Shown here one piece after another: positions 57,575-58,181 of a stretch of 64,000 nucleotides of DNA. A program made the translations under genes and the position numbers. Location of the stretch: NCBI GenBank assembly GCA_964424735.1, contig CAYRJU010000004.1, positions 16,038 through 80,037 on the forward strand. The letters run 5' to 3'. The notes under the pieces are model-generated. The model was given only the letters and a program-made list of their open reading frames with translations, was not told the origin of the DNA and made no database searches. Each line of letters starts with the position of its first letter. Within the stretch, counting starts at the first letter, position 1. The stretch is from an uncultured bacterium. Lineage in GTDB: Bacteria; Chlamydiota; Chlamydiia; Chlamydiales; SM23-39.

Positions 57575-58181
57575 AAGAGAATTGATATAGATGTCGGGCG
57601 TGCTACGCTATCGCTGCGCCCCAGCACCCAGCGGCCCTAACTGGGACTTTGCAGACCGTGGGTGGAGAACATCCACCCACTATCGCGTGCTCGCCCTCGC
57701 CGTGCAAAGCACTGCTCTTGCGGGCTGCGCTGCGATTCTGCTGTGTCCCAGCGGGCAATGGCTACGATGAGCATTTCGGCTTCGCCTTCATGTCGCATCG
57801 TAGTTGCGGCCGGACTAAGGTCTCGGCCATTTAGACATATTGAACCTACTCAGCTTAAGCAGCTTTTCTGCTCTTCTTTTAGATCGCACATACAAAACCC
57901 CATCTGAAAAACAGTGTAGGAAAGAAAAAGGCCGAGACTTTGGTCCGGCCTTCATCTACGATGCGACATGAAGGCGAAGCCGAAATGCTCATCGTAGCCA
58001 TTGCCCGCTGGGACACAGCAGAATCGCAGCGCAGCCCGCAAGAGCAGTGCTTTGCACGGCGAGGGCGAGCACGCGATAGGGAGAGCGTAAGCGAACCCGA
58101 TCTGCAAAGTCCCAGTTAGGGCCTCTGGGCGCGGGGGCGCAACGGTAGTGAAGCATGCCCGACATCTATATCAATTCTCTT
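57575..58181. repeat. 607-bp GC-rich inverted repeat (arms of about 253 bp, 101-nt spacer)
   Basis: Perfect blocks: 25 bp (57575-57599 / 58157-58181), 23 bp (57633-57655 / 58101-58123), 124 bp (57680-57803 / 57956-58079). Confidence 0.95.

Follow-up and report, generated by a model that had tools for sequence, protein, structure and literature searches.

On the sequence evidence assembled here, the 607-bp inverted repeat between rplI and hldD is an insertion, and each of its arms is one copy of a structured module of about 235-240 nt, in which compensatory substitutions have preserved a multi-helix fold. The repeat lies in the window, the whole stretch of 64,000 nucleotides that we analysed, which comes from a MAG of 1.68 Mb in 55 contigs (G000, 92% complete); its features are collected in Table 1. 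We take the element to be a member of an undescribed family of mobile non-coding repeats of environmental chlamydiae (Parachlamydiales), in which the structured module is selected on one strand and likely acts in cis as an RNA that terminates or insulates transcription, a reading to which we assign a probability of about 0.5.

Table 1. Coordinates of the inverted-repeat element, its parts and its neighbours in the window, and of cargoes enclosed by related pairs (named by contig or locus)
Feature	Position	Strand	Description
rplI (ribosomal protein L9), upstream neighbour	57014..57547	+	TIGR00158, E = 1.2e-32
Left outer terminus	57575..57592	+	purine-rich leader ending TATAGAT (AAGAGAATTGATATAGAT); perfect inverted repeat of 58164-58181
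Left arm	57593..57832	+	structured module of ~240 nt, sense on + strand, start GTCGGGC
Core multi-helix domain, left arm	57641..57755	+	helix coordinates mapped on single-arm fold
Core helix CTGGGAC/GTCCCAG	57641-47 with 57745-51	+
Core helix GCAGA/TCTGC	57651-55 with 57737-41	+
Variable hairpin GTGGGTGG-AGAACAT-CCACCCAC	57658..57680	+	sequence different in every copy, local hairpin kept
Core helix ATCGCGTGC/GCTGCGAT	57682-90 with 57729-36	+
Core hairpin GTGC-AAA-GCAC	57702-12	+
Core helix GCTC/GGGC	57714-25	+
3' hairpin CTACGATG...CATCGTAG	57762..57803	+	inner GGC-TTC-GCC stem
Putative homogenised tract	57680..57803	.	124 bp identical to complement of 57956-58079
Terminator-like hairpin, left arm inner end	57808..57832	+	GGCCGGAC-TAAG-GTCTCGGCC then ATTT, weak T-run
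Spacer	57833..57925	.	without ORF
Small terminator-like hairpin and T-run in spacer	57858-57882	+
Right arm	57926..58163	-	second module copy, sense on - strand; inner end GGCCGGACCAAAGTCTCGGCC then TTTTT
Right outer terminus	58164..58181	-	inverted copy of 57575-57592
hldD (ADP-glyceromanno-heptose 6-epimerase), downstream neighbour	58256..59245	+	TIGR02197, E = 4.1e-107
Cargo	G012:C12		RING/U-box-TPR protein and 144-aa ORF
Cargo	G012:C26		two orphan ORFs
Cargo	G112:C30		one orphan ORF
Cargo	metagenome L052		one 131-aa ORF

A repeat search and pairwise alignment of the arms place the inverted repeat exactly where the preliminary description had put it (termini included, 57575-57832 and 57926-58181) and bear out its suggestion of two ~250-nt repeat copies in inverted orientation. 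The left arm and the reverse complement of the right arm are identical at 232 of 255 aligned positions, the differences comprising 23 positions plus indels, and the perfect blocks of 25 bp (57575-57599 against 58181-58157), 23 bp (57633-57655 against 58123-58101) and 124 bp (Table 1) were all recovered. Likewise, the arms are GC-rich (62.5% left, 61.3% right) around an AT-richer spacer (39%; window 47.5%) and the diverged patch on the left folds into a local hairpin, the variable hairpin of Table 1; the spacer itself measures 93 nt instead of the 101 nt first given. For the whole 607-bp region the predicted fold reaches -520 kcal/mol (z = -58). No ORF is conserved in the palindrome, in agreement with the earlier statement that it holds no credible one: ORFs of 58-59 aa that start at the ATG of ATGTCGGG were rejected as not conserved, the position of this ATG reading GACGGTCGGG or GACGTCGGG in relatives and the indels not being multiples of three.

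The genes on both sides, rpsF-rpsR-rplI upstream and hldD with the HldE-kinase gene downstream, all lie on the plus strand, as had been noted for the two immediate neighbours, and rplI reads into the left arm at its 5' end. The genes rplI and hldD are likewise neighbours in three congeneric species (G009, G012 and G013), separated by only 63-165 nt that hold an ordinary hairpin/T-run terminator. Because this gap is short and free of the element in all three, the 607-bp block is an insertion in the lineage studied here; from the rplI stop codon (57547) to the start of the element, no ordinary terminator is left. A target duplication is not visible at the palindrome, as stated before, and no direct repeat flanks any of 16 elements, a comparison made without exact empty sites in which a duplication of 1-2 nt could escape. 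Two further observations concern the genes beyond hldD. The HldE-like protein (59239-60570, plus strand, 443 aa) matches kinase domain I only (residues 9-315), its last ~125 residues having no NCBIfam match, so that the adenylyltransferase half is diverged or missing. Directly after the heptose genes, a stand-alone 194-aa ORF (60849-61433, plus strand) carries a LigD 3'-phosphoesterase domain (TIGR02777, E = 1e-57).

Several lines of evidence support the fold within each arm. A covariance model was built from 17 arms, and both arms of the window match the model R1, the left one at 229.9 bits (E = 1.3e-72) over the full model and the right one at 237.3 bits (E = 5.5e-75). Applied to a plain MAFFT alignment, RNAalifold yields 43 predicted pairs, of which 21 show compensatory changes; in 40 model-aligned copies, 92.4% of cells are paired and both sides have changed in 28 of the 43 pairs, so that the covariance modelling proposed in the preliminary description supports a fold in each arm. 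In a shuffle control, 0 of 500 replicates reached the observed pairing and compensation values, and in a slide control, with partners shifted by 1-3 columns, pairing fell to only 31-50% of cells. Folding the left arm singly reproduces the consensus structure. The core helices (helices 3, 4, 6, 8 and 9) are paired in 87-100% of cells and include changes on both sides, and in the variable hairpin (helix 5) both sides have changed in all four pairs. Compensation can also be read directly from raw sequences: CTGGGAC/GTCCCAG is replaced by CTGAGAC/GTCTCAG, GCAGA/TCTGC by GTAGA/TCTAC, GTGC-AAA-GCAC by GTGG-AAA-CCAC, and CTACGATG/CATCGTAG by TTGCGATG/CATCGCAA or CTGCAACG/CGTTGCAG. The copies of G009 and G013a, which occupy orthologous loci with both flanks matching (the locus is empty in G000), are distinguished by seven compensated pairs and a single broken one; in the 3' hairpin, the orthologous G013 and G009 copies show CG to TA, AT to GC, GC to AT and again CG to TA.

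The covariation also points to one strand. G-U or U-G cells outnumber A-C or C-A cells by 73 to 29 in the model alignment, and G-U outnumbers A-C by 37 to 13 in the MAFFT alignment, in whose construction the structure played no part; at two positions G-U occurs in about half of all copies. Because of this excess of G-U over A-C, we conclude that the folded strand is the one that runs from GTCGGG at the outer end inward, which gives the module a secondary structure with one-strand covariation, as in a structured non-coding RNA gene. A scan of Rfam 15 with permissive filters returned two sub-threshold, chance-level matches only, sRNA162 (28.6 bits, gathering score 78; located chiefly over the spacer) and a toxic sRNA (19.5 bits, gathering score 50; located at the right arm's inner end). 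In two loci of the Chlamydiota MAG ES1.bin.38 (L032, 5092-5428, and L027, 5013-5342), the module carries the same insertion of ~140 nt (GAAGAACTCTTCCCTATTTAGGGAAGAG...) inside the long-range helix, which has the appearance of an expansion segment or of a nested element.

By BLAST, the check proposed earlier against genome and metagenomes, the source genome holds only these two full arm copies, and more are found on metagenome contigs; one arm gave no match in a plasmid collection or a phage collection. By the covariance model, 23 of the 103 genomes in the GTDB family carry the module (11 of 53 genera, up to 12 copies per genome), and it occurs in three further families of the order Parachlamydiales as well, with nine copies there in G042 (99% complete, 6 contigs); the distribution across Parachlamydiales is patchy. 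Relatives carry copies at other loci (two complete inverted pairs in G013, one pair in G009), and further carriers include G030, G007, G014 and G001. The earlier idea of a non-autonomous element is therefore matched by its behaviour, since G009, G012 and G013 lack it between rplI and hldD and copies lie elsewhere. Presence/absence polymorphism, several copies and terminal inverted repeats, here perfect over the outermost 25 bp, are features of MITEs, and two inverted hairpin units that surround a spacer and are copied as a unit are the hallmark of REPINs. All pairs found but one are convergent, and the spacers of related elements differ in sequence and in length (about 45-90 nt).

Conserved ends accompany the module. 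In 51 of 51 arms examined, a purine tract at -30 to -10 is followed by (A)TATAGAC(N) directly before GTCGGG. The preliminary description had noted that the termini share ATGTCGGG with a palindrome family of the same genome (family A) and had thought this perhaps a matter of chance. Family A palindromes (TAATTCTACATGTCGGGGACAAAGCGGAT...), which start ACATGTCGGGGAC and occur in the window at 6537-6594, 36216-36276 and 50150-50211, comprise short forms of ~85 nt (about 20 per genome) and a few long forms of 300-430 nt. Those long forms (in G000, C24:7439-7740, C35:9271, C3:67025-67455 and C21:13580-13884) are matched by the covariance model, and their core, ...CCTAACTACGACTTTGCC...GTGCAAAGCAC...GTCGTAGCGG..., is homologous to the arms of the 607-bp element with covarying helices, so the shared ATGTCGGG reflects homology and not chance. 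The short forms look like internal deletion derivatives; together with G000:C1:78945 they are the termini-only derivatives that we found, and G000:C9:30621-30915 and C5:58095 share the 5' module. The minimal element at G000:C1:78900-79000 consists of two termini only (purine tract-AATAGACGGTCGGGCTGCTCCGC...CCCGACCGTCTATT), lies ~60 nt from the end of a putative tRNA gene (judged by eye) and has a 5' module of the G013 type, not of the window type. At a G030 pair (L013, contig C55, about 1390-1440 and 2000-2050), each end is flanked outward by a perfect small palindrome (CAAATGTAAAGCGGCTTTACATTTGG), and the inverted symmetry reaches about 60 nt beyond GTCGGG.

How might such a module act? The general plan of the element is a purine tract, TATAGA and GTCGGG, a structured module of ~238 nt and a hairpin with T-run, then a spacer and the same series inverted. 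Since the 5' ends of the modules face outward, transcription that enters from either flank would yield a sense module first, which would fold as an RNA acting in cis and then end at the inner hairpin and U-run; in the window, transcription running on past rplI would produce the left arm as RNA. In this way the element would terminate and insulate transcription, capping the upstream mRNA with a stable 3' structure, and here it would take the place of the terminator found after rplI in relatives, while movement would proceed via the conserved termini with an enzyme supplied in trans. The inner ends are partly consistent with such a role: the same hairpin closes both arms of the window element (with a T-run of ATTT only on the left; Table 1), and all same-genus arms have an equivalent inner hairpin followed by T3-T7, the T-run often being missing from copies of other genera. 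A promoter and terminator scan called nothing at the arm ends and only the small hairpin in the spacer, the arm-end hairpins escaping a consensus scan because their stems are bulged.

The cis-acting RNA reading is weakened on several counts. First, no sigma-70-like -35 box was found upstream of any of the 51 arms, the purine tract occupying its position. Second, the orientation of solo modules with respect to the upstream gene is random (11 sense, 9 antisense) and four of them are flanked by divergent genes, so not every copy can be explained by read-through, and the idea that read-through alone accounts for the module was rejected on these orientations. Third, the junction of ~130 nt is more elaborate than a terminator needs. 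Among the solo modules that follow a gene, 6 of 11 start 5-35 nt after the stop codon, as the window copy does, a hint that the module inserts into terminator hairpins or replaces them. These close-to-stop sense modules are found at L075, L082, L083, L087, L089 and L092, in addition to the window.

The chief rival is a REPIN-like substrate in single-stranded DNA, that is, a purely selfish foldback transposon comparable to REPINs or MITEs, whose fold would be recognised by a trans-acting transposase and whose RNA would be incidental; we consider this possible rather than probable. An inverted pair would offer one active copy on either DNA strand, and the multiple copies polymorphic between genomes, the conserved termini and their termini-only derivatives, the convergent pairs copied as units, the random orientation relative to genes and the lack of a visible target duplication, as in single-strand transposons, would all be expected; G-T pairs, moreover, are tolerated in DNA too. 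Yet the coreless short forms are the most numerous in G000, implying that the core is dispensable for spread, and this core is nonetheless the best-conserved part across four families. We know of no precedent for a long-range multi-helix junction conserved in the substrate of an HUH transposase.

The search for a mobilising enzyme also bears on this rival. Among the transposase and recombinase families screened, none was identified as moving the element, and no parent IS with the same ends and a transposase was found, the four cargo-bearing elements carrying unrelated orphan genes. The RAYT family (Y1 HUH transposase, PF01797) had no match in G000, G013, G001, G007, G014, G024 or G042, which counts against the transposon, and no tested transposase family is common to the five carriers screened: rve, IS256 and Transposase_31 occur in 0 of 5, DDE_Tnp_1, DDE_3 and RT in 1 of 5 and resolvase in 2 of 5, and all seven were dropped as the mobiliser. 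The ubiquitous XerC/D-like recombinases, present in 5 of 5, are the only recombinases shared. Searching 12 Y1/TnpB loci (IS200/IS605 derivatives, PATE and TnpB omega-RNA) with the arm model gave nothing, and TnpB is present in many non-carriers and was not found in the carriers G001 and G042; for want of arm sequence at the 12 loci and of co-occurrence, a link to IS200/IS605 or TnpB was rejected. The only TnpB-type gene found in the source genome (Cas12f1-like zinc-ribbon, G000:C4:91332-91523, open frame 383 aa) lies on the same contig ~17 kb downstream of the element, outside the window, and its flanks share nothing with the arms. An IS110 bridge or seek RNA was likewise rejected, given that the recombinase (PF02371) was not found in G000, G013, G009, G012, G007, G030 or G106, occurs in only 5 of 23 carriers, and no guide-like match was seen. 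The more general idea of a guide RNA failed too, the longest match between variable region and outer flank being 6.1 for real and 6.1 for shuffled flanks.

Comparison with described repeats places the element near several of them. Correia elements (CREE) of Neisseria and ERIC of enterobacteria are short non-coding MITEs with terminal inverted repeats, polymorphic between strains and co-transcribed, which can act as terminators or as processing or stability sites; Correia elements are 100-155 bp long, carry TIRs of 26 bp and show duplication of TA. The element described here is similarly non-coding, polymorphic, bounded by terminal inverted repeats and inserted next to genes, but unlike Correia elements it shows no duplication, has no known parent IS, and has arms of ~255 bp with a covariation-supported junction inside. 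REPINs, which are REP doublets mobilised by RAYT transposases (PMC3337134), share with it two inverted hairpin-forming units around a short spacer, a non-coding and intergenic nature, copying as a unit, the lack of an internal transposase and the occurrence of single units as remnants; in contrast, where REPINs have a hairpin of 20-40 nt and a GTAG tag (PMC3337134), the present element has a unit of ~235 nt containing a multi-helix junction and a terminal (N)GTCGGG tag preceded by a purine tract. Also unlike REPINs, the copy number is low (1-12 per genome) and no RAYT/Y1 was found in the carriers searched. A third relation is to CGTC-tagged REPs, including some palindromic elements of Rickettsia, which are likewise GC-rich palindromes, mostly inverted dimers, in intracellular bacteria and with no dedicated transposase identified (PMC3733652). 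Their units have 8-9-bp stems, 4-5-nt loops and CCA tails and were not reported from Chlamydiae (PMC3733652), and the unit here is an order of magnitude larger. Tag forms of the present family (GACGTCGGG, GATGTCGGG or ACATGTCGGGG) resemble their CGTC or TGTC tag, a 4-nt likeness that we treat as only a lead.

Alternatively, the arms could be a pair of trans-acting sibling sRNA genes, each with its own TATAGA-box promoter and terminator and serving host or element, with mobility secondary; we judge this rather unlikely. Sibling sRNA pairs with Rho-independent terminators are similar in that two near-identical structured non-coding units are each closed by a hairpin and T-run, as the arms of this genus are. 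The strand-specific covariation, the conserved unpaired nucleotides of the junction, a TATAGAC box 0-2 nt before the conserved 5' end and an orthologous copy kept across two species with compensated changes all agree with this account, whereas the purine tract in place of a -35 element, the copy number of 0-12 with its patchy distribution, which speaks against a housekeeping role, and the lack of an Rfam match do not. Sibling sRNAs are, moreover, fixed chromosomal genes with promoters, and the units here are mobile, convergent, variable in copy number and without a recognisable -35 element.

A bolder account, which we regard as improbable, is that the core of ~130 nt represents a new functional RNA class or an attC-like folded single-strand recombination site, belonging to an unrecognised cassette system in environmental chlamydiae. 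The attC sites of integrons are read as a folded single strand, and convergent module pairs could by analogy be docking sites that exchange orphan or effector-type genes. Four pairs do enclose genes, with cargoes that are mutually unrelated and lack a transposase domain in all six ORFs (Table 1); cargo in this scheme would be the RING/U-box-TPR protein in G012 and the orphan genes in G012, G112 and the metagenome contig, and the enzyme would be unrecognised or a housekeeping one, such as the XerC/D-like recombinases common to the carriers screened. The first G012 element (L019, G012:C12:12800-17800, at 796-4264) has two inverted arms of 324 nt from a sister family, 96% complementary, around 2.8 kb that encode a 532-aa protein with RING/U-box (an effector-like eukaryotic E3 ligase domain) and TPR, plus a 144-aa orphan. 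A second one (L068, arms at 1043-1387 and 4493-4846) encloses two different orphan genes.

Very unlikely, in our view, is selection on the long duplex between the arms, be it as a ~250-bp dsRNA for RNase III or as a DNA cruciform or inversion switch that would uncouple the ribosomal operon from the heptose genes. The preliminary description had pointed to such a dsRNA stem and RNase III site, and the fold of the whole region, the plus-strand neighbours and arms long enough for recombination and spacer inversion would all suit it; the conserved feature is nonetheless each arm's own fold. Complementarity between arms is not conserved, paired arms being only ~60% alike in another genus (g18; the G030 pairs), where both arm types are found again at another locus with 84-94% identity, which implies that a pair is copied as a unit with no need of a foldback. 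In the G009 element the right arm has lost its middle through an internal deletion and the left arm is intact; in G013a the two arms differ at 12 positions, six of which make three compensated pairs within an arm and break pairing between arms. Solo modules are common and, in the window, two terminator-like sites precede the right arm. From these comparisons, the long inter-arm stem is incidental. The perfect 124-bp core is best explained, on its pattern of identity, by recent gene conversion between the arms, as had been guessed, and not by selection for a long stem: identity between the arms is 72% in their 5' parts and 77% in their 3' parts, with no difference over the 124 bp of the core, a mosaic that fits a recent conversion tract, and cores of different genomes are 86-91% identical. 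A fold-back chimera of assembly is scarcely credible, even for a 55-contig MAG whose relatives' contigs often break inside such elements (e.g. L006, L024), as the differences between the arms (23 positions and indels) follow a structured pattern, collinearity with three relatives extends over both flanks and the same architecture recurs in independent assemblies, including contigs of 576-586 kb.

Should the module act as RNA, it would define a new class of structured RNA known from an intracellular lineage only; as a substrate at the DNA level, it would imply a mobilising activity outside the transposase families screened. Environmental chlamydiae have compact genomes with very few recognisable transposases. 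They nonetheless carry GC-rich, elaborately folded repeats that are mobile, that persist across speciation with compensated changes and that sometimes bracket orphan or effector-like genes. Such elements break MAG assemblies, and they can replace the native terminators of core operons, here apparently that of the rpsF-rpsR-rplI operon.
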